From positions 29,882 through 93,881 of the forward strand of contig JACQKW010000015.1 in NCBI GenBank assembly GCA_016204385.1: a DNA stretch of 64,000 nucleotides. The letters run 5' to 3'. Shown here piece after piece: positions 5,873 to 49,688 of this stretch (within the stretch, counting starts at the first letter, position 1; each line of letters begins with the position of its first letter). Origin of the DNA: Candidatus Liptonbacteria bacterium. Its GTDB lineage: Bacteria; Patescibacteriota; Minisyncoccia; UBA6257; 2-01-FULL-56-20. The notes below the pieces were generated by a model. The model was not told where the DNA came from. It did no database searches and saw nothing but the letters and a program-made list of their open reading frames with translations. Both the position numbers and the translations under genes were made by a program.

Positions 5873-7160
5873 ATTTTTGGAGCACTTTGGGAATTTTAAT
5901 TTTGCCTTCCTTCGTCTGGAAATTCTCAAAAATTGTGATCAGCGTCCGGCCGACGGCAAAGGCGGTGCCATTCAGCATATGCACAAATTCAATGTCCTTG
6001 CCGGTGCGATACTTTACGCTCAGCCGCCGCGCTTGGTAGTCGGTCGTGTTAGAAGCTGAATGCGTCTCGCGGTATTCGCCCTTGCCGTCCCGCTGGCCCG
6101 GCATCCACGTCTCAATATCGAACTTGGCGGCCGCCGGATCGCCGAGGTCTGCCGTGCACATCTCGATAACTCGGTACGGAAGCTCAAGTTTTTGCATAAG
6201 GTGCTCTTGAACCCCTAAGAGCAACCGGTGCTCGTGAACCGAGGTTTCCGGTTTAACAAAACTGAACATCTCGAACTTATCAAACTGATGCACGCGCAGA
6301 ATCCCTTTGGTGTCCTTGCCGTAACTCCCGGCTTCTCTCCGGAAACACGTGGAGAACCCCACATACCGCCGCGGCAAGTCCTTTTCCTCGAAAACCTCAT
6401 TCTGGTGCATCGGCCCCAATGCCTGCTCTGAGGTGCCGGCTAAATAGAGATCGTCTTTTTCTATTTTGTAGACTTCTTCCCCGCCGCGTTCAAGATACCC
6501 CATACCAGACATAGATTTTTCGTTCAAGAGCACCGGAGGAATCACCGGAATAAAAGGCGTGTCGGAAACTGTGAGGCCGTTTTTTTTGATAATGTGCGTT
6601 AAGATTTTCTGATCGGCGAGCGTCTCTAAAACCAGTTGTCCCAGCGCAAACTCAAGCCGCGCCGCCGCTCCAAGAAGATACCCGAACCGGCTGCCCGCGA
6701 CTTTCGCCGCCCGTTCAACGTCAATTAATCCAAGGCTCTCGGCGAGCGTCAGATAATCTTTAGGCGGGAAAGAAAATTTTGATTTCTCTCCGACTTCGCA
6801 GAGCACCTTATTATCCTTCTCGCTTTTCCCGATGGGTGCGTCCGGGAGCGGGAGATTCGGGATTTTTCGCCACACAGCCATCCGCCGCCCCTCGATCACC
6901 TCGAGTTTCACCTCCTCGGATTTGATGTCTTCCTTATTTTTCTTTGCCGCCTCGATATTCCGCGCCTCGGCTTGCCCCGAGTGTACCGAGTGGGAAAATT
7001 TCTTCTGCCCCGCCCGCAAATCATCGAGTTTTTTCGTAATCTCGCGCCACTCGCGGTCGAGCTTCAAAAATTCGTCCACGAGCTCCGGTTGAACGCCCTT
7101 CTTTTCTATGCCGCGTTTGATGCGGTCCGGCTCCTCGCGGAGGAGTTTTATATCAATCAT
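5847..7160 (-). CDS. serS: Seryl-tRNA synthetase
   Basis: 437 aa. MIDIKLLREEPDRIKRGIEKKG N-terminal coiled-coil arm and class II core (FRREAGSYGKDTKGILRVHQF). Its ATG overlaps the RT stop codon (ATGA at 7157-7160). Confidence 0.92.
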   Translation of the reverse strand: MIDIKLLREEPDRIKRGIEKKGVQPELVDEFLKLDREWREITKKLDDLRAGQKKFSHSVHSGQAEARNIEAAKKNKEDIKSEEVKLEVIEGRRMAVWRKIPNLPLPDAPIGKSEKDNKVLCEVGEKSKFSFPPKDYLTLAESLGLIDVERAAKVAGSRFGYLLGAAARLEFALGQLVLETLADQKILTHIIKKNGLTVSDTPFIPVIPPVLLNEKSMSGMGYLERGGEEVYKIEKDDLYLAGTSEQALGPMHQNEVFEEKDLPRRYVGFSTCFRREAGSYGKDTKGILRVHQFDKFEMFSFVKPETSVHEHRLLLGVQEHLMQKLELPYRVIEMCTADLGDPAAAKFDIETWMPGQRDGKGEYRETHSASNTTDYQARRLSVKYRTGKDIEFVHMLNGTAFAVGRTLITIFENFQTKEGKIKIPKVLQKYVGAKVIS

Positions 7161-7161
7161 T
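7126..7161. repeat. Direct repeat copy 1 (serS 5' end), left boundary of the DGR cassette
   Basis: tccggctcctcgcggaggagttttatatcaatcatt. It is 35/36 identical to 9930-9965, at an offset of 2804 bp. Confidence 0.9.
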
Positions 7162-8257
7162 GACTCCTATCATACCTTAATTTTTCTTCATCGTGAAGCA
7201 TTGCGGAAACGTCCGTGTGAAGTTTTCGGGTGTTGCCGTGTGCTAATAGTCCGAAATAAGAATTGAATGTTTCGGGCGTGTGGCTTGCCATAATTTTCTT
7301 CATCATTCTTCGCCTCGTGCTCGTACGCAACACCCGATGGTCGGGAAAATGTACCCATCCCAAAAAATCAACGCCCGACGCAAGCGTTTTAATAAAAACC
7401 TTATCGGGGTGGAGGGTAAGTTGTAACTTTTCGCGCAGGAATTCTCGGATCAGCAACGTGTTTTGCTCGAGCCAGACGCGGTCTTTGGAAAGAAATATAA
7501 AGTCGTCGGCATACCGGAGGTAATACCGCGCCTTAAGCCCGTGTTTTACAAATTGATCAAATTCATTCATATAGACATTCACGAGAAGCTGTGAGGTGAG
7601 ATTGCCAAGTGGAAGGCCTGCCCACCCGAAGCTGTGCGAAGGCGGGCCGGCGCCTGGCCGCATGGACGAAAAACTGCTAATAATCTCTTGGAGAAGTTCT
7701 ATAATTTCTCCGTCGCGAATATAACTCCGCAAAATTCTCATAAGAATCGTGTGGTTAATATTTGCGAAGAATTTTCTGATGTCGCATTTCAAAACCCAGC
7801 AGGTTCTCGTATTGTTTTTGCTCACTTTGTAGGCAAATATGCGGAAGCGGTTTAATGCTCTATGCGTCCCCTTCTCCTTTCTGCATGAGAAAGAATCGGC
7901 AATAAAAGCCTTGTCAAAAAATGGATAGAGTACTCGATAGATGGCGTGGTGCACGAGGCGGTCGCGGACGCTCGCCTTGTGGATGTTCCGCGGTTTGGGA
8001 TCGGAGATATTGAACGCTTGATAGCCGCCGTGGCGATAGGTATGATAGACAAGATCATCGTGGAGCAGAAAGAGGTTATCGATAAGATGCAATGAAAATT
8101 CTTGAACATCGCGCTTGCCGCGTTTTCCTTTCACAAACTCCCTCCAAGCCTCCAAAAAATTCTCTACGCTCGCAATATCCGCAAAGTTTTTAGCAAATTG
8201 GATTTTCATATTTCTTTTCCCATGAACGCCCCCCCCCCGCTTCAATTTACCCATCAT
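7157..8257 (-). CDS. DGR-type reverse transcriptase
   Basis: 366-aa ORF. RT motifs include LPLGNLTSQLLVNVYMNEFD (the DGR-specific [LIV]GxxxSQ) and YADD (RYADDFIFL), next to a TR/VR pair. The likely true start is ATG at 8209 (MKIQFAKNF...). Confidence 0.9.
   Translation of the reverse strand: MMGKLKRGGGVHGKRNMKIQFAKNFADIASVENFLEAWREFVKGKRGKRDVQEFSLHLIDNLFLLHDDLVYHTYRHGGYQAFNISDPKPRNIHKASVRDRLVHHAIYRVLYPFFDKAFIADSFSCRKEKGTHRALNRFRIFAYKVSKNNTRTCWVLKCDIRKFFANINHTILMRILRSYIRDGEIIELLQEIISSFSSMRPGAGPPSHSFGWAGLPLGNLTSQLLVNVYMNEFDQFVKHGLKARYYLRYADDFIFLSKDRVWLEQNTLLIREFLREKLQLTLHPDKVFIKTLASGVDFLGWVHFPDHRVLRTSTRRRMMKKIMASHTPETFNSYFGLLAHGNTRKLHTDVSAMLHDEEKLRYDRSQ
8229..8238. repeat. C10/G10 homopolymer tract between the RT and avd starts
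   Basis: Ten consecutive C on the plus strand, between the probable RT start (8209) and the avd start (8268). Confidence 0.9.
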
Positions 8258-8267
8258 TCAGCATCTT

Positions 8268-8603
8268 GTGGCAACTTACAAAGTCTGGCATGAATTTTTG
8301 CCGCACATTCCCAAAGACGCACGGTACACGCTGGGGACAAAAATAGATGGGCTGTTCGTAGAAACGGTAGAGTTGATTTTCACGGCGACGTATCTTGGTA
8401 AAAGCCAGAAATTTCCTTACGTGCAAAACGCGGCAACAAAACTTGATCTTGTAAAATTCTTCCTTCAAATTCTCTGGGAAATCAACGCACTTGATAATAA
8501 AAAGTATATCCGCATTTCTGAAAAACTAAACGAGATCGGCAGGATGCTCGGCGGCTGGAACAGGCAGTTAAACAGGGAAAACCCCGCAAGGAGCGGGGAA
8601 TAA
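8268..8603 (+). CDS. avd: Avd-like four-helix-bundle protein (DGR accessory variability determinant)
   Basis: 111 aa with a GTG start. YKVWHEFLPHIPKDARYTLGTKIDGLF...KLDLVKFFLQILWEINALDNKKYIRISEKLNEIGRMLGGW resembles the four-helix-bundle/S23-IVS family to which Avd belongs. It sits between RT and TR but on the opposite strand. Confidence 0.7.
   Translation: MATYKVWHEFLPHIPKDARYTLGTKIDGLFVETVELIFTATYLGKSQKFPYVQNAATKLDLVKFFLQILWEINALDNKKYIRISEKLNEIGRMLGGWNRQLNRENPARSGE
8582..8598 (-). terminator. GC hairpin plus U-tract 11 nt 3' of the TR (possible TR-RNA 3' end or structural element)
   Basis: ccccgc-aagga-gcgggg. On the minus strand it is followed by TTTTCCCTGTT. It lies inside the last avd codons on the other strand. 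Confidence 0.4.
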
Positions 8604-8609
8604 AGAGAT

Positions 8610-8744
8610 TTGCGGACGGCGGCAAAGCGGTAGTTCGAGTTCCACTCGTTGTCGAACCAGTTCAGGTTCAGGTTACGCTTCGAACCGTTCCTGTCGAGGT
8701 ACGCCACAGTGCGGTTGCCGTTCGGATTCCGCCACACGGAACCA
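8610..8744 (-). repeat. DGR template repeat (TR)
   Basis: 135 nt, 124/135 identical to 9110-9244. All 11 differences are T on the plus strand of the TR, which is A on the minus (coding) strand. It encodes an Asn(AAC)-rich sequence. Confidence 0.92.
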
Positions 8745-9000
8745 TCGTACAAAATATCGCCTGCGCCACTGCCCTTCGAATACTCTTGGGGTTGTATCGT
8801 ATTCGGGATCTCGAAAAATCCTAATCCCTTAATATTTTGCACCAAGTATCTTTATTTTTGAGGAAAGAGAGAATATCTCTAGCCATAAGCGTACCCATAG
8901 CTATTCCCTATTCAGTGTTTCCGGAATTCGACTGTTGTGAACCGTGGCCCACAGCTTGTGTTGAGTCTACTATCCAAATTCAAATTATCACATGGTGCAG

Positions 9001-9043
9001 AAATGAAAAGCCCGTGCAGAAGACCGAAGTCCTGTGCACGGGC
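9001..9043 (-). terminator. Rho-independent terminator downstream of the DGR target gene
   Basis: Minus strand GCCCGTGCA...TGCACGGGC, followed by TTTTCATTT. Confidence 0.6.
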
Positions 9044-9082
9044 CAAGTTCCCAAGGGACAAAGAATCTCAAAGCGTTGAGGA

Positions 9083-9103
9083 TTCAGAGTCCTAAGGTCT
9101 GAA
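9083..9103 (-). promoter_or_regulatory. Short hairpin immediately 3' of VR and the stop codon
   Basis: ttcaga-gtcctaagg-tctgaa (6-bp stem) starting 3 nt after the stop. DGR targets are known to use a hairpin downstream of VR, but this one is weak. Confidence 0.3.
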
Positions 9104-9105
9104 AG

Positions 9106-9723
9106 CTACTTGCGGACGGCGGCAAAGCGGTAGTGCGAGAACCACTCGTTGTCGAACCAGTGCAGGCGCAGGTCACGCTTCGAACCGTACCTGACGAGGT
9201 ACGCCACAGTGCGGTAGCCGTGCGGATTCCGCCACACGGAACCAAGAGCGATGATCGGGAACTCGCGCTGCTTCTCGGGATACTCCGCGCCGAAGGCGAG
9301 TAGCTCGGGAAGGGTTGCGGGACGGAGACCACGCGCGTCGAGCTCGCAGAGCGCGTTGTCCGACGAAACCCTCCGGTTGAGATGGACAAGCTCGATCGCG
9401 ACTTCTGCCGTGCCTTTCTGTGTAGTCGGGAAGTTCTTGGAGGTGATGTCGGAATTCGTCCAGTTGTACTTCCCTGCCGCGACCATCTCCTCGACGGAGT
9501 GAGCGTAGTCGAGGGTGAGGCGGAACACGTTCTTCGCCCCTTCCATGATCGCGACAAGCGCATCCGCGATCTTCCCGACCGGAACATCACCGTCGTCGGT
9601 TACGAGCTGGTGAATCTGCTCGTCTGAAACCTTCCGCTCGCGGAGCGCACGGACAAGTTTGTCCGCGAACCCAGCGATCCAGCCCGCCCCTGAAACGATT
9701 GCCGTTACGTCCTTCCGTGCCAT
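9106..9723 (-). CDS. DGR variable (target) protein, VR at the C-terminus
   Basis: 205-aa ORF with strong SD GAGGAGGAAGTC-ATG. The C-terminal 45 codons are the VR (GSVWRNPHGYRTVAYLVRYGSKRDLRLHWFDNEWFSHYRFAAVRK). I see no signal peptide or TM helix. Confidence 0.85.
   Translation of the reverse strand: MARKDVTAIVSGAGWIAGFADKLVRALRERKVSDEQIHQLVTDDGDVPVGKIADALVAIMEGAKNVFRLTLDYAHSVEEMVAAGKYNWTNSDITSKNFPTTQKGTAEVAIELVHLNRRVSSDNALCELDARGLRPATLPELLAFGAEYPEKQREFPIIALGSVWRNPHGYRTVAYLVRYGSKRDLRLHWFDNEWFSHYRFAAVRK
9110..9244 (-). repeat. DGR variable repeat (VR)
   Basis: Counterpart of the TR. 9 codons are changed (8 of 9 TR AAC Asn codons plus one GAC). The 3'-terminal ~25 nt (GC-rich, ...GCCGCCGTCCGCAA) is identical to the TR, like an IMH. 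Confidence 0.92.
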
Positions 9724-9789
9724 GACTTCCTCCTCTTCGGCTTGCCCCTCATTCCGACCTTATGCCGGAATCCCAGGCGTGCCAGTTTT

Positions 9790-9835
9790 GGTTACAGCCT
9801 TGAATCCGTGAGCGAGCGGACTCAAAGCTGTAACC
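9790..9835 (-). promoter_or_regulatory. Long 5'-UTR hairpin of the DGR target mRNA
   Basis: 19-bp stem with an 8-nt loop. Two positions are C.A/A.C on the plus strand but G.U on the minus-strand transcript. Confidence 0.55.
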
Positions 9836-9874
9836 AAGAAAACCGCAAGTTATCGATTTTTAAGGTACCCGGGC

Positions 9875-9904
9875 ATTGTAGCATATAAACTATATTCTTG
9901 TCAA
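9875..9904 (-). promoter_or_regulatory. Consensus sigma70-type promoter of the DGR target gene
   Basis: Minus strand TTGACA-N18-TACAAT. The block ATGCTACAATGCCC is shared with the promoter at 20568-20597. Confidence 0.6.
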
Positions 9905-9929
9905 GTTCTGGTATGGGGGGTGAACTTTC

Positions 9930-9964
9930 TCCGGCTCCTCGCGGAGGAGTTTAATATCAATCAT
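9930..9964 (-). pseudogene. Relic serS 5' fragment (first 11 codons, MIDIKLLREEP)
   Basis: ATG at 9964 followed by the same codons as the real serS. The frame then diverges and stops after 24 codons inside the target-gene promoter. Confidence 0.8.
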
Positions 9965-9965
9965 T
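9930..9965. repeat. Direct repeat copy 2 (relic serS 5' end), right boundary of the DGR cassette
   Basis: tccggctcctcgcggaggagtttaatatcaatcatt. The single difference from copy 1 is a synonymous Ile codon (ATA/ATT). Confidence 0.9.
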
Positions 9966-10006
9966 AAAATTAATCATATACCAAACCTGTCTGCTCCTCG
10001 TAACCG

Positions 10007-10015
10007 CCCCCCCCC
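10007..10015. repeat. C9 homopolymer tract
   Basis: Nine consecutive C next to the hairpin at 10016-10040. Confidence 0.9.
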
Positions 10016-10040
10016 AACCTGCCCGCCATGCGGGCAGGTT
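10016..10040 (+). terminator. Hairpin plus T-tract in the relic-serS/thrS intergenic region
   Basis: aacctgcccg-ccatg-cgggcaggtt, then ttcattttc. No plus-strand gene lies upstream, so its role is unclear. Confidence 0.35.
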
Positions 10041-10094
10041 TTCATTTTCTCTATAGCTTTCAAAAAATCCGCTACAATCCTATAATCTTAGAAC

Positions 10095-11876
10095 ATGGCA
10101 AAGAAGTCCTCCGCATCGAATCTCGAGCATATCCGCCATTCTTTGGCACATCTCCTCGCGGCGGCAGTCTTGAGGAAATTCCCCAAGGTAAAGCTTGGCA
10201 TCGGGCCCGTAATTGAAGACGGGTTTTATTATGATTTCCTCCTCCACGGCAATGAGAAATTTTCTCCCGATGATTTGCGAGAATTCGAGAAGGCGATCCG
10301 TGATTTCATTCGCGACGATTTGAATTTTATCGGCAAAAAAGTCTCGGCCGCCGAAGCGAAAAAGCTTTTCGCGGGACAGCCTTTTAAACTCGAACTTATC
10401 AAGGATTTTGTAAAAGAAAAGCAAAATCTCACCACCTACCGCACTGGAGACATATTTACTGACCTGTGCCGCGGCGGACATGTGAAGAATACGAAAGAAA
10501 TCAACCCCGACGCATTCAAACTCACGAAAATTGCGGGCGCCTACTGGAGGGGCGACGAAAAAAATTCCCAGCTCCAACGGATCTACGGCGTGGCGTTTGC
10601 GACCAAGAAAGAACTCGGAGAGTACCTCGCAATGCTTGAGGAAGCGCGAAAGCGGGACCATAAAGTCCTGGGTCCCGATCTCGATCTTTTCACATTTTCC
10701 GAACTTGTGGGCTCGGGACTCCCTTTGTGGACTCCGAAGGGCACGATTCTTCGGGACCTCCTCGATAATTTTGTCTGGGAACTCCGCGCACGCCGCGGCT
10801 ACGAGCGGGTGGATATCCCGCACATCACAAAAAAGGAACTCTACGTGCGGAGCGGCCATTGGGAGAAATTTAAGAACGAGCTTTTTAAAATCGTGACTCG
10901 CGAGGGGCACCTCCTCGCCATAAAACCGATGAACTGCCCCCACCACACGCAAATCTACGCGCGGCGAAAGTGGAGCTACCGTGAACTGCCCCAACGATAC
11001 GCCTCCACCACAAAAGTCTACCGCGACGAACAAACGGGCGAGCTTGCGGGCCTTGCACGCGTACGCTCGATCACGCAGGACGATGCGCATTCCTTCTGCC
11101 GCAAATCGCAGATTGCGGGCGAGATGTCGAGTATCTGGGACATTGTAGAGGAGTTTTATGCGGGCTGCGGATTCCCGAATCTTGAAGTGCGTCTTTCGTT
11201 CCATGACCCGAAGCAGCCGAAGAAATATCTTGGGTCGCCCGCAGTATGGAAAAAGGCGGAGGCGGAACTCGCGGCGCTCGCACAATCGCGATTAGGACCT
11301 GCGTTTGAGAGAAAAGTGAAGGTTGACATGGGCGAGGCGGCGTTCTACGGGCCGAAAATTGATTTCATTGCCAAAGATTCGCTCGGCAGGAATCTGCAGG
11401 TCGCCACGATCCAGCTTGATATGAATATGCCCGAGCGATTCCGTCTTGCGTGCGTGAATGAGAAAGGGAAAGACGAGGGGATTTTCATGATTCACGCGGC
11501 AATCATGGGTTCGATCGAGAGGTTCCTCGCCGCGTTCATCGAGCATACTGGGGGCAAGTTTCCTGTGTGGCTCTCTCCCGTGCAGGCGGAAATTATAAAC
11601 GTCGGCTCCGGCCAGAGGAAGTATGCGGAAAAAATATTTAAAGGTTTGAAAACGGCAAGTGTCCGCGCGCGGCTCTCCGACGAGAATCTGACCGTCGGCA
11701 AGCGCATCCGCGAAGCGGAACTCCAAAAGATTCCCTACGTCCTTGTAGTCGGAGAAAAGGAAGAAGCCGCAGGCACCGTGAATGTCCGGCATTACCGGCG
11801 AGGCCAGGAAGGAGAAATAAAATTCGAAGCGTTCATTCAAAAAGTGATGGACGAGATCACGCGAAAAACGGTCTAG
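10095..11876 (+). CDS. thrS: Threonyl-tRNA synthetase (no N-terminal TGS domain)
   Basis: 593 aa. HIRHSLAHLLAAAV...GIGPVIEDGFYYDF editing-domain start, then class II core and anticodon-binding domain. TATAAT lies 8 nt upstream of the ATG. Confidence 0.92.
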   Translation: MAKKSSASNLEHIRHSLAHLLAAAVLRKFPKVKLGIGPVIEDGFYYDFLLHGNEKFSPDDLREFEKAIRDFIRDDLNFIGKKVSAAEAKKLFAGQPFKLELIKDFVKEKQNLTTYRTGDIFTDLCRGGHVKNTKEINPDAFKLTKIAGAYWRGDEKNSQLQRIYGVAFATKKELGEYLAMLEEARKRDHKVLGPDLDLFTFSELVGSGLPLWTPKGTILRDLLDNFVWELRARRGYERVDIPHITKKELYVRSGHWEKFKNELFKIVTREGHLLAIKPMNCPHHTQIYARRKWSYRELPQRYASTTKVYRDEQTGELAGLARVRSITQDDAHSFCRKSQIAGEMSSIWDIVEEFYAGCGFPNLEVRLSFHDPKQPKKYLGSPAVWKKAEAELAALAQSRLGPAFERKVKVDMGEAAFYGPKIDFIAKDSLGRNLQVATIQLDMNMPERFRLACVNEKGKDEGIFMIHAAIMGSIERFLAAFIEHTGGKFPVWLSPVQAEIINVGSGQRKYAEKIFKGLKTASVRARLSDENLTVGKRIREAELQKIPYVLVVGEKEEAAGTVNVRHYRRGQEGEIKFEAFIQKVMDEITRKTV

Positions 11877-19702: not shown

Positions 19703-19730
19703 TCCCGTTAGAGATAAATCTCTAACGGGA
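19703..19730. repeat. 28-nt perfect palindrome flanked by CTTG direct repeats, overlapping the paralog stop codon
   Basis: tcccgttagagataaatctctaacggga, with cttg at 19699-19702 and 19731-19734. Confidence 0.8.
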
Positions 19731-20375
19731 CTTGCCTGCCTTGTCGACAGGCGGGCAGGCGACGAGCCACCGCCAAACGCCGCGCCGACTGATGCCAGCC
19801 CAGTCGAAGTCCGAGAGCCACCGCTCGCCGCCCACGTCGAGGTACGGGAAGAAGCGGTTGCCGTCCGGGCTCACCCAGGACAGATCGGCGAAACCGATAG
19901 GACCCTTGCCGTCAGGCTTCGGGTAGGCCTGGCGGAAAGCCTCCCGCCACTGTCCTTCGGGGATGACTCCGTGGGCCTTGAGGGCGCTTCTGACCGCGTC
20001 GAGATTCGGCTGGTAGCCGACTGCGACGAGCTTGAAGCGCCTGGTCTGCTTCCCTTGGGGTCTCGTTCCCTTGAACTGCCAGTCCTTGGGGTCGTAGCCG
20101 TCGCCTCGAACCATCTCCAGAGGGTCGACGCTGCCTGCGTCGAGCGAAAGCTCGAACTCGACGCCTACGTTGGGGATGGTTGGTCGAAGGGTGGTGACCG
20201 AAGCGCTACTGTAGCGCTTGAATGCGTCGCCCACTCCGGCAACCAAGGGGCTCTTGTTGCCGATGATTGCCTGGGCTTCGTCGAAGTTCAGGCTGGGCAT
20301 GGCCCCGACCATCGTTGCGATGATGTCGTTGCGCTGACCGTCGGTCATGCTGCGGACTGTCTCACGGTTTCCCAT
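19722..20375 (-). CDS. Non-diversified paralog of the DGR target protein
   Basis: C-terminal half aligns with the target: FKLVAVGY..LDAVRSALKAHGVIPEG...PIGFADLSWVSPDGNRFFPYLDVGGERWLSDFDW...VWRWLVAC versus ELVHLNRRVSSDNALCELDARGLRP...PIIALGSVWRNP.G.RTVAYL....W.D..W..YRFAAV. The ATG at 20375 has SD AAAGGAGG; the ORF track starts at GTG 20405. Confidence 0.7.
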   Translation of the reverse strand: MGNRETVRSMTDGQRNDIIATMVGAMPSLNFDEAQAIIGNKSPLVAGVGDAFKRYSSASVTTLRPTIPNVGVEFELSLDAGSVDPLEMVRGDGYDPKDWQFKGTRPQGKQTRRFKLVAVGYQPNLDAVRSALKAHGVIPEGQWREAFRQAYPKPDGKGPIGFADLSWVSPDGNRFFPYLDVGGERWLSDFDWAGISRRGVWRWLVACPPVDKAGKSR

Positions 20376-20444
20376 GAGCTGTTCCTCCTTTGCAGAGTGG
20401 CGCACTCCTTATCCCGCGGTATGCGAGACCTGGAGCCTGCCGTT

Positions 20445-20494
20445 TTAGCCACAGAACTTAGATTGGATCTTTCCAGCCTAAGTTCTATGGCTAA
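20445..20494 (-). promoter_or_regulatory. Long 5'-UTR hairpin of the paralog mRNA
   Basis: 17-bp stem with a 16-nt loop. The single non-WC position is C.A on the plus strand but G.U on the minus-strand transcript. Confidence 0.55.
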
Positions 20495-20567
20495 TGCAAG
20501 ACCCGTGAGAGGCCTGCTCTCTAATGGGGCAAGTAGCTATACGCGTATGATTTCAAAGTGCGGGGGC

Positions 20568-20597
20568 ATTGTAGCATAGATGATGCCAATCTGTCAA
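20568..20597 (-). promoter_or_regulatory. Consensus promoter of the paralog
   Basis: Minus strand TTGACA-N18-TACAAT, with the same ATGCTACAATGCCC block as at 9871-9885. Confidence 0.6.
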
Positions 20598-20645
20598 GCC
20601 CAGCAAACAAACTCGGCAAGCGGCACTCTAAAACTCTTTCCACAA

Positions 20646-20687
20646 CTCTTTCCACTATAAATGATTAATCTGTTATAATGGAAACAG
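20646..20687. repeat. 42-bp near-palindrome, copy A (TGTTTCCATTATAAA-arm family)
   Basis: 38/42 identical to 49646-49687. It overlaps TATAAT (20674-20679), 12 nt upstream of the PaaX-like ATG. Confidence 0.85.
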
Positions 20688-20691
20688 TTCT

Positions 20692-21267
20692 ATGGCAACA
20701 AGAAGGCTTCTCACAAAAACAACGTTTACAAAGGATACGCTCCTCCGAATTGCCGCTATCGGTATCCTTACCATTGCCGCGGGAACGTCTCCATATTTCC
20801 TCCACCGGATTGTAAAAACCTATTTCAAAGATAAAGTAAGAAAAATGCAGCGAGCGAGAGCAAAGAAATTGCGCGAACTGGAACGGCGAAAATTGGTTCG
20901 TATCGAGGAATTGCCTGACGGAAAAGTGCGTATCGAACTTACTCACCGGGGGAAGCAACTCGTGCGGACATACGATTTAGAACACATGAAACTTACCGCT
21001 CCAAAGCGGTGGGACGGATCCTGGAAAGTTGTTATCTATGATATCCCTGCCTCGCAGAAAAAGGCAAGCAATGCCTTTCGTGAAAAATTAAAACAGCTGG
21101 GGCTGTTCCCCCTCCAAAGGAGCGTATGGATTTCGCCGTATGACTGCCTTCGCGAAATAGAATTCCTTGCAACGGTATTCGAGATCGACATGGACAAGTG
21201 CATTTGCTACTTCTCCACAAAAGACGTGCCGCGAGAAAAAGAGATGAGGAAGTTTTTCAATCTATAG
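20692..21267 (+). CDS. PaaX-like / Cas2-fold winged-helix regulator family protein
   Basis: 191 aa. KRWDGSWKVVIYDIPASQKKASNAFREKLKQLGLFPLQRSVWISPYDC matches the WDGxWxxVxFDIP...LQxSVWxxP pattern I associate with PaaX-type proteins. Confidence 0.6.
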   Translation: MATRRLLTKTTFTKDTLLRIAAIGILTIAAGTSPYFLHRIVKTYFKDKVRKMQRARAKKLRELERRKLVRIEELPDGKVRIELTHRGKQLVRTYDLEHMKLTAPKRWDGSWKVVIYDIPASQKKASNAFREKLKQLGLFPLQRSVWISPYDCLREIEFLATVFEIDMDKCICYFSTKDVPREKEMRKFFNL

Positions 21268-21282
21268 TTTATCGCAGAACTG

Positions 21283-21326
21283 AATGTTTCCATTATAAAG
21301 GAATATTCCTTTATAATGGAAACATT
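21283..21326. repeat. 44-bp perfect palindrome, copy B (same arms, different core)
   Basis: aatgtttccattataaaggaatattcctttataatggaaacatt, followed by tttt. Could act as the terminator of the PaaX-like gene. Confidence 0.85.
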
Positions 21327-21684
21327 TTTTGCTCAGTCGGGCTAAGAATTAATCCGCCATTTCCACGCCCATTCCGCCTCGCTCATCCACACTCGCTCCC
21401 TCATAACCCTCGGTTTTGAGTAATTTCCTATTCACCCCGACGTTACGTCAGGGCAGGCGGGAAAATCCTTCCGCCTTTTTCACACTCCCAACCAGAGGAG
21501 AAATTTCTATTTCGCAACCATAAGCGAAGGTTAGCAAGAAATATTCGAGCGAAGCGCAAATTTTTTGATCATAAATTTTTTGGTCGGAAAATCCTGAAAG
21601 GAGGAACGGGAACCAGAAAATTTATTCAAAAAATTAAGCGGAGTGAGCCGTATTTCTCTAACCGAAGCGGGTTCGAAAAAGAAA

Positions 21685-25498: not shown

Positions 25499-25562
25499 CC
25501 TCCACACCTAATTGAGATCACAGAGGGTTGTGAGGTTTTACAATCTCAATTAGGTGTGGGGG
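25499..25562. mobile_element. MITE-like palindromic element (CCCCCACACC family), copy 1
   Basis: 20-bp terminal inverted repeats cctccacacctaattgagat/atctcaattaggtgtggggg with a 24-nt centre. Flanked by TAAA on both sides (25495-25498 and 25563-25566). Confidence 0.5.
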
Positions 25563-25826: not shown

Positions 25827-25915
25827 CGGAGGCGAGAGGATTCGAACCTCTGTGGCGTTTTTTAGACGCCGACGGTTTAGCAAACCGTTGCCTTAAACCA
25901 CTCGGCCACGCCTCC
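25827..25915 (-). tRNA. tRNA-Ser (anticodon GCU)
   Basis: Minus strand GGAGGCGTGGCCGAGTGG...ACGGT-TTGCTAA-ACCGT, a long variable arm, then GGTTCGAATCC...CGCCTCCG. CCA is not encoded. Confidence 0.9.
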
Positions 25916-49644: not shown

Positions 49645-49688
49645 ACTGTTTCCATTATAAATGATTAATCATTTATAATGGAAACAGT
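49645..49688. repeat. 44-bp perfect palindrome, copy C (TGTTTCCATTATAAA arms)
   Basis: actgtttccattataaatgattaatcatttataatggaaacagt. It carries outward-facing TATAAT boxes on both strands, 45 nt upstream of lemA. Confidence 0.9.

Follow-up and report, generated by a model that had tools for sequence, protein, structure and literature searches.

The window analyzed here is a 64,000-nucleotide stretch of the genome of a Candidatus Liptonbacteria bacterium, a 605-kb assembly of 15 contigs that is 80% complete and whose relatives in the public records are MAGs of Patescibacteria. On its minus strand the window carries a complete diversity-generating retroelement (DGR). The target, or variable-protein, gene (9106 to 9723, minus strand) is an open reading frame (ORF) of 205 amino acids, for which no Pfam family match was obtained, and it contains the variable repeat (VR) at 9110 to 9244. 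A terminator-like hairpin followed by a U-run (9001 to 9043, minus strand; ΔG of -26 kcal/mol, z of -6.7; then UUUUCAUUU) separates this gene from the template repeat (TR; 8610 to 8744, minus strand), which lies 350 nt upstream of the reverse transcriptase (RT) gene, an ORF at 7157 to 8257 on the minus strand (Pfam RVT_1, E = 1.2e-24). An avd-like accessory gene (8268 to 8603, plus strand; Pfam bAvd, E = 2.2e-14) is placed between TR and RT, on the strand opposite to both. The locus thus shows the hallmarks of a DGR, namely an RT adjoining a TR, an Avd accessory protein, and a 135-bp VR that differs from the TR only at TR adenines (11 mismatches, 11 of 11 at adenines). The public sequencing runs listed for positions 8600 to 10100 of the window are three DNA runs from one groundwater study, with no RNA run among them.

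The whole 2.8-kb cassette, from promoter to RT, is bracketed by a 36-bp direct repeat (9930 to 9965 and 7126 to 7161, minus strand) in which 35 of 36 positions are identical. The repeat consists of the first 11 to 12 codons of serS plus one upstream base, and the stop codon of the RT gene overlaps the serS start codon as ATGA; judging by the repeat, the cassette looks like an insertion into the 5' end of serS. On the plus strand, a GC-rich hairpin with a T-run (10016 to 10040) is followed closely by a promoter-like site (10059 to 10086) and, after 55 nt, by the thrS start (10095).

A paralog of the target gene lies at 19722 to 20375 on the minus strand. It encodes 217 amino acids from an ATG and is 26% identical to the target protein (E = 7e-5). 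The paralog is not currently diversified: no TR-like match was found at its 3' end beyond a 34-nt patch, and the possibility that it is a second target of the same TR was rejected, there being no VR-like match. Beside the paralog is a PaaX-like gene (20692 to 21267; Pfam PaaX_M, E = 2.7e-18), flanked by a repeated palindrome, TGTTTCCATTATAA...TTATAATGGAAACA, with arms of 20 to 21 bp, which occurs in the window at about 20640 to 20690, at 21282 to 21327, and at 49645 to 49688. The palindrome may be an operator of the PaaX-like gene or a bidirectional terminator. The gene was entertained as a candidate regulator and was rejected, being found only in this genome's own loci.

The target gene and its paralog are preceded by promoters whose -35 and extended -10 sequences are the same. 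The target promoter (9871 to 9904, minus strand) has TTGACA at 9904 to 9899, followed by TGCTACAATGCCC at 9883 to 9871 with a TG before the -10 element, and it matches 11 of 12 consensus positions; the paralog promoter lies at 20564 to 20597 on the minus strand. The initial annotation had described the two promoters as near identical, and the 34-nt pattern TTGACA-N15-TGCTACAATGCCC indeed has exactly two copies in the 605-kb genome, which are these two loci. Downstream of each promoter lies a long hairpin, which we call P1. In the target leader it spans 9788 to 9837 (minus strand) with 21 uninterrupted base pairs, including two G.U pairs, and an 8-nt loop (ΔG of -34.8 kcal/mol, z of -8.9). In the paralog leader it spans 20445 to 20494 (minus strand) with 18 bp, including two G.U pairs, and 4 further inner base pairs (ΔG of -31.9 kcal/mol, z of -9.8). 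Both hairpins had been placed correctly before, as stems of 19 bp at 9790 to 9835 and 17 bp at 20445 to 20494; their lengths are here corrected. The stems sit at similar distances from the start codon, -114 to -65 for the target and -119 to -70 for the paralog. Folding of the whole 5' untranslated regions (UTRs) likewise gave stabilities beyond those of shuffled controls, with z of -5.5 and -5.3.

The two strands do not fold equally well. All non-Watson-Crick positions in the stems are G.U pairs on the minus strand and mismatches on the plus strand, as had been pointed out, with the amendment that the paralog stem has two such pairs and not one. The plus-strand folds are weaker, at -30.3 kcal/mol for the target and -28.3 kcal/mol for the paralog, so that the minus strand is about 4 kcal/mol more stable in each case. 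The sequences directly after the stems, AACTGGCACG and AACGGCAGGC, are A-rich and contain no U-run, and A-rich tails follow P1 at other sites too, which rules out P1 as an intrinsic terminator or attenuator.

Stems of 17 bp or more occur at 31 loci of this genome, compared with 0, 0, and 2 in three shuffled genomes. Long stems are therefore not rare here, a long hairpin by itself is weak evidence, and the case for a selected element rests on comparison with other genomes. Several other hairpins and palindromes were seen along the way. A strand-specific hairpin at 25502 to 25559 of the window (minus strand), whose 21-bp stem includes three G.U pairs and whose loop measures 16 nt, is close to a tRNA gene (25827 to 25915). 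Elsewhere in this genome (designated G000), two strand-specific hairpins of 17 to 18 bp with loops of 12 to 16 nt, at C14:4284-4333 and C15:22260-22307, have similar 3' tails, CATTAGTACC and CATTCGTACC, and may belong to another hairpin family; the RNase III gene lies some 550 nt downstream of the former. The first 142 nt of contig C6 (C6:1-142) are a perfect palindrome at the contig start, whose center, TATTTTCTTATTCGCGCGAATAAGAAAATA, recurs at the end of contig C7 (C7:109795-109836) and also, in another genome, upstream of a target homolog at about -199 to -170 from the start codon (loci L010/L040). It may be an assembly artifact or a conserved palindrome.

Target-protein matches were found in 29 of 125 genomes of the bacterium's family, this genome included, and a scan of species-representative genomes added 57 further loci with homologs. 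Start codons of the homologs were set by reading frame and Shine-Dalgarno (SD) sequence, and the upstream regions were then read; a C-terminal fragment at a locus edge (L086) was given no start codon, and three loci (L035, L036, and L040) were removed as duplicates. With a simple filter that required pairing, a like hairpin was seen in 24 of 72 non-duplicate upstream regions, one of which (L016) was judged false. By the same filter the remaining 48 of the 72 regions were without P1, and at the locus of the closest homolog (L004) inspection by eye showed no more than a remnant of the 3' arm. P1 is dispensable for the target gene family.

A seed alignment of 23 sequences, which aligned well, served as the basis of a covariance model, R1, and RNAalifold gave a single helix for this alignment, with compensatory changes at 16 of 22 pairs. 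The structure comprises about 22 bp built around the core AYAGC...GCURU, with one A-U pair that is invariant and one G.U pair that is conserved. R1 matched 55 of the 125 genomes of the same family and 10 of 150 genomes sampled evenly over the phylum, the latter from at least eight families, with two of the phylum-sample loci (L138 and L139) looking like false matches. Within the window the model found no site besides the two already known, and none at the other end of the cassette. Both window stems fit it, at 42.9 bits for the target (9782 to 9849, minus strand) and 43.5 bits for the paralog (20439 to 20506, minus strand). The two stems have in common a G-C at pair 4, an AYAG/CUGU core, and an A-U followed by a G.U at pairs 16 and 17, and they differ at the remaining positions by compensatory changes. 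The earlier view of the two stem sequences as unrelated is not upheld, since they share the core, the covarying flanks, and the A-U then G.U pairs characteristic of P1; these common features had been overlooked, as had the second hairpin described below.

The 102 R1 matches in the loci collected were reduced to 53 sites by taking the better-scoring strand; at one locus (L027) the strands tied within 0.4 bits, and the strand of the homologous gene was kept. The 53 sites were realigned with MAFFT and not fitted to the structure. Standard pairs filled 91.2% of cells, compared with 37 to 43% when the partners were slid by 1 to 3 columns, part of this pairing being due to ascertainment because the seeds were picked by a filter demanding pairing and the later sites were found with the seed-built model; related genomes, moreover, are not independent. 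Both sides had changed in 19 of 22 pairs. The covariation score was 0.649 compared with 0.09 to 0.17 in controls, a value reached in none of 500 shuffles, and for four of five measures the observed values were reached by 0 of 500 shuffles. In the seed alignment the flanks covary between forms such as GGUU/AACC, CGCC/GGCG, GGUC/GACC, and GGGU/ACCC, and a G.U pair comes next after the A-U pair. Only two pairs never vary across the 53 sites, the G-C at pair 4 and the A-U at pair 16. The pair after the invariant A-U is G.U at 41 of the 53 sites and G-C at 10, and a G.U here would turn into A.C, a mismatch, on the opposite strand. Helix length is nearly constant, with a median of 22 bp, a range of 20 to 33 bp, and 44 of 48 sites within 20 to 24 bp, and the hairpins are very stable (median of -32 kcal/mol). 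The loops vary from a few to about 40 nt, and the conserved nucleotides are inside the helix.

The orientation of P1 follows the genes. An SD-preceded ORF of at least 60 amino acids starting within 260 nt was present on the sense side at 47 of 53 sites, compared with 11 on the antisense side, and among non-seed sites with an unambiguous better strand the ORF was on that strand in 26 of 29. A promoter, taken as a site in the upstream 90 nt that deviates from TTGACA-16/18-TATAAT at no more than 2 of its 12 positions, preceded P1 at 45 of 53 sites and at 0 of 53 in the antisense control. The end of the -10 box is a median of 33 nt (19 to 57 nt) from the stem, and on account of this distance P1 is predicted to begin roughly 26 nt from the 5' end of a transcript driven by a strong promoter of the sigma-70 type.

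Among 29 loci found in the family search, the ORF downstream of P1 nearly always encodes about 200 amino acids and has a DGR-type variable C terminus, with very different N-terminal parts; the exceptions include a Gly/Tyr-rich secreted protein (L107) and a 61-amino-acid ORF (L096). In the phylum sample, 8 of 10 P1 sites precede an SD-preceded ORF, and 7 of these 8 ORFs resemble DGR targets by eye. An adenine-biased TR/VR pair was present inside the stretch examined at 21 of 53 P1 sites. An RT search gave a match in 69 of the 125 family genomes and, by hand tabulation, in 44 of 55 P1-positive compared with 25 of 70 P1-negative genomes. At least 22 P1 sites are followed, at a distance of 0.8 to 1.9 kb, by an RT match in the same orientation, and there P1 therefore heads a target-TR-RT cassette. 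At a locus in a genome of another family, a group I intron (L131:2780-3045, minus strand; Rfam, 92.9 bits) and tRNA genes adjoin a P1-led DGR target, and tRNA genes also flank three other P1 loci (L062, L133, and L140).

These comparisons show that the two window hairpins are copies of P1, a conserved 5'-leader module of the mRNAs of DGR variable proteins in Patescibacteria, and that the structure is selected on the mRNA-sense strand. We are highly confident that P1 is a selected RNA structure in the leader. The initial proposal of a functional RNA element in the DGR target family is thus borne out by covariation, strand asymmetry, promoter position, and gene association, and the hairpin recurs at the same position before homologous and analogous genes of other genera, families, and orders with abundant compensatory changes.

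The leaders contain more than P1. In both window loci a second, composite hairpin, P2, lies between P1 and the ribosome-binding site. In the target leader P2 spans 9739 to 9783 (minus strand) by folding and matches a second covariance model, R2, at 9718 to 9787 (minus strand, 62.9 bits) on one strand only; its layout is GGC, a 2x2 loop, GCCU, a GGG-GAG loop, and an 8-bp hairpin, and it ends 7 nt before the SD sequence. The paralog P2 spans 20399 to 20441 (minus strand) by folding, with an R2 match at 20378 to 20445 (minus strand, 43.1 bits). The general build is GGC/GCC, a 2x2 loop, a 4-bp helix, a purine-rich GGG/GAG loop, and a hairpin of 7 to 8 bp. Across 22 sequences, 87.8% of cells were paired, compared with 28 to 50% in slid controls, and 14 of 17 pairs showed compensatory changes. 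R2 matched 11 of the 125 family genomes, on one strand only in every case, and P2 goes with one type of N-terminal domain. What two DGR targets at other loci (L026:1495-2145 and L031:1495-2199) have in common with the window target is limited to about 57 N-terminal residues and the P2 leader, and their C-terminal domain differs from that of the window target. The leader parts thus behave as modules, because P2 and its N-terminal domain occur fused to a different C-terminal domain, and this arrangement suggests that leader and N-terminal domain may be exchanged together. In other lineages, P1 is followed instead by a covarying mini-hairpin and a conserved AGCCCNCUGGCAGAAAAGGAG stretch, and conserved CUUUGAAA and ACUUGCGA stretches lie upstream of P1, all as judged by eye.

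The P1 leader probably controls the processing or translation of variable-protein messages. The explanation that we prefer as a whole, and to which we would give an even chance, is that P1 acts in cis as a double-stranded RNA (dsRNA) platform that would be read by a trans-acting dsRNA-binding protein, with P2 modulating the access of ribosomes. Cleavage or binding at P1 would then determine how the variable-protein message is processed, how stable it is, or how it is translated and, with read-through, would also affect the downstream TR-RT transcript. The near-constant length of about 22 bp corresponds to two helical turns in which few base pairs are fixed and most of the sequence is variable. 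The fixed pairs, at positions 4, 7 to 11, and 16 to 17, would lie on one face of the two turns, and the shape would suit recognition by a dsRNA-binding domain. RNase III is the leading candidate reader. Its gene is present in this genome (G000:C14:4887-5273), and in helix length P1 falls in the range of RNase III substrates, which have at least about 20 bp of dsRNA; as a specific identification, however, RNase III is tentative and on balance somewhat improbable. Bacterial RNase III needs little sequence specificity, and for this reason the fixed pairs may point to a different reader.

Leader hairpins processed by RNase III are found in the rnc and pnp leaders of Escherichia coli and in the N leader of phage lambda. 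P1 resembles them in being a long, near-perfect stem of about two turns in a 5' UTR, clear of the ribosome-binding site, in a host that encodes RNase III. It differs from them in having base pairs that are fixed across orders and in being tied to one functional class of genes, and cleavage of P1 is hypothetical. Sequestration of the SD sequence is not supported as a general mechanism. P1 does not overlap the SD sequence, and in predicted ensembles for 48 sites masking was inconsistent, with a median unpaired probability of 0.43, values below 0.3 at 12 of 48 sites, and values above 0.7 at 9 of 48. Readings of the conserved parts as a kink-turn, a tetraloop-receptor, or an attC site were dropped because the strand asymmetry or the core sequences did not fit.

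The same leaders could be read as a ligand- or factor-sensing device, similar to a riboswitch, in which the 5' CUUUGAAA box, the ACUUGCGA box, P1, the mini-hairpin, and then the AGCCCNCUGGCA box or P2 form one sensing fold that gates translation. Several conserved single-stranded boxes do flank P1 near the SD sequence, as seen by eye, P2 has conserved purine-rich internal loops, and the target leader of the window folds as a single closed domain, the SD sequence being paired there with a 5' CCUU. We nevertheless consider this reading unlikely. The conserved nucleotides of P1 are inside the helix while its loop is free to vary, P2 and the box-type 3' part are swapped between lineages in a manner unfit for a single aptamer, and the SD sequence is not consistently sequestered. 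RNAalifold gave no long-range or alternative pairs for nine full leaders; pairing of the 5' boxes with the SD-proximal box was likewise absent there, and such pairings made by eye were inconsistent.

The put RNA of phage HK022 is a promoter-proximal structured RNA that acts in antitermination ahead of an operon containing a terminator. P1 is similarly promoter-proximal, structured, and located before an operon with a terminator. It could by analogy modify RNA polymerase to read through into TR and RT. The predicted start of P1 soon after a strong promoter, the strong terminator-like hairpin between target gene and TR at 9001 to 9043, and the sites at the head of target-TR-RT cassettes all accord with such a role. 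P1 is, however, a single long helix and is found also where no operon follows; the window paralog (start at 20375) has both P1 and P2 and yet no TR or RT downstream. We regard antitermination as improbable.

The association with DGRs invites more specific proposals. One is that P1, together with P2 or the box-type 3' part, constitutes a dedicated DGR regulatory RNA through which one RNA-binding factor, which could be Avd-RT, would govern all variable-protein genes of a cell, cassette-linked targets and remote paralogs alike. This is unlikely; were it true, the expression of diversified proteins, or the choice of loci that receive mutagenized cDNA, would be coupled to DGR activity. A related proposal, which we find quite unlikely, is that the element's own Avd-RT complex binds P1, whether to exert feedback on the expression of targets or to flag target transcripts or loci as recipients of cDNA. 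The cooccurrence of P1 and RT across genomes speaks for such a function, as do the avd homologs in 47 of the loci collected and the presence of P1 before several target families that have only the C-terminal variable fold in common. Against it, 11 P1-positive genomes have no RT match, these being incomplete genomes, and the undiversified paralog carries P1 too.

A hairpin with an established place in DGR biology is known, and its comparison with P1 bears on the same proposal. The target-site hairpin/cruciform reported by Guo et al. (2011, PMC3240598) is short, lies immediately 3' of VR, and acts at the level of DNA. P1 is similar in being an inverted repeat of a DGR target gene in which the structure of the stem matters more than its sequence. 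It is unlike that hairpin, as there portrayed, in lying 5' of the gene, about 540 nt upstream of VR, in being about 22 bp long, and in being strand specific in the mRNA sense. The target-site hairpin is placed there within about 24 bp downstream of VR, a position that P1 (9788 to 9837) does not occupy with respect to the VR end at 9110. The stretch just 3' of the window VR folds weakly (z of -0.24). According to the same paper, the DGR of the Bordetella phage does not need sequences upstream of VR for retrohoming (PMC3240598), and this, along with the 3' placement of the known hairpin, argues against a role of P1 in retrohoming without excluding it.

An element acting as DNA is very improbable, whether as a palindromic operator bound by a dimeric repressor or as a hairpin of single-stranded DNA that serves movement of the cassette. 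The stem is, to be sure, an inverted repeat just downstream of a promoter, P1 is near the upstream end of the cassette bounded by the 36-bp direct repeat, and single-stranded DNA hairpins tolerate G.T pairs, so that a G.T wobble would stabilize a hairpin of the same strand. However, the spacing of the arms is very variable, with loops of about 8 to about 40 nt, most positions covary rather than being conserved as half-sites, the conserved G.U pair breaks the symmetry between strands, the orientation of P1 always follows the gene, and the other cassette end has no second P1. The conserved half-sites, fixed spacing, and strand symmetry of a palindromic DNA operator are thus not seen in P1. A generic stabilizing hairpin that has no specific reader and only slows 5'-end-dependent decay would suit the high stability of P1 and its place in the leaders of strong-promoter genes, but is very unlikely given that P1 begins about 26 nt into the transcript rather than at its extreme 5' end and keeps base pairs and a length of about 22 bp fixed across orders, which a roadblock would not need.

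P1 belongs to a known kind of element, the conserved structured mRNA leader, of which we rate it a new family. The rating rests on searches of Rfam 15 and of the literature. At the gathering score, no family of Rfam 15, RT-1 to RT-19 included, matched P1 or the leaders in the window or at 20 other P1 loci, where the only matches were to tRNAs and one group I intron; with both window leaders searched at E values up to 10, only miRNA-hairpin noise far below threshold was returned. A full-text literature search outside subscription journals and supplementary files found no account of such a leader motif in DGR targets. Weinberg et al. (2017, PMC5737381) described the RT-1 to RT-19 motifs, structured RNA candidates obtained near bacterial reverse transcriptase genes by comparative genomics. 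P1 is like them in being a candidate structured RNA that adjoins retroelement genes and has no assigned function, and unlike them in preceding the target gene and not the RT and in having no matching Rfam model. The link between such a leader and the genes for DGR variable proteins appears to be new.

P1, a covariation-supported leader common to many otherwise unrelated target genes, bears on the regulation of DGRs and their variable proteins. To our knowledge, Patescibacteria hold a very large share of the known DGRs and are not culturable alone. The P1 leader offers a portable RNA handle of about 50 to 150 nt for reporters and binding assays. Used as a sequence tag, P1 picks out the genes of DGR targets without recourse to protein homology, remote or undiversified paralogs among them. 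Its inclusion would enlarge the known set of bacterial cis-regulatory RNAs by one family, and from a phylum that is so far sparsely covered in it.
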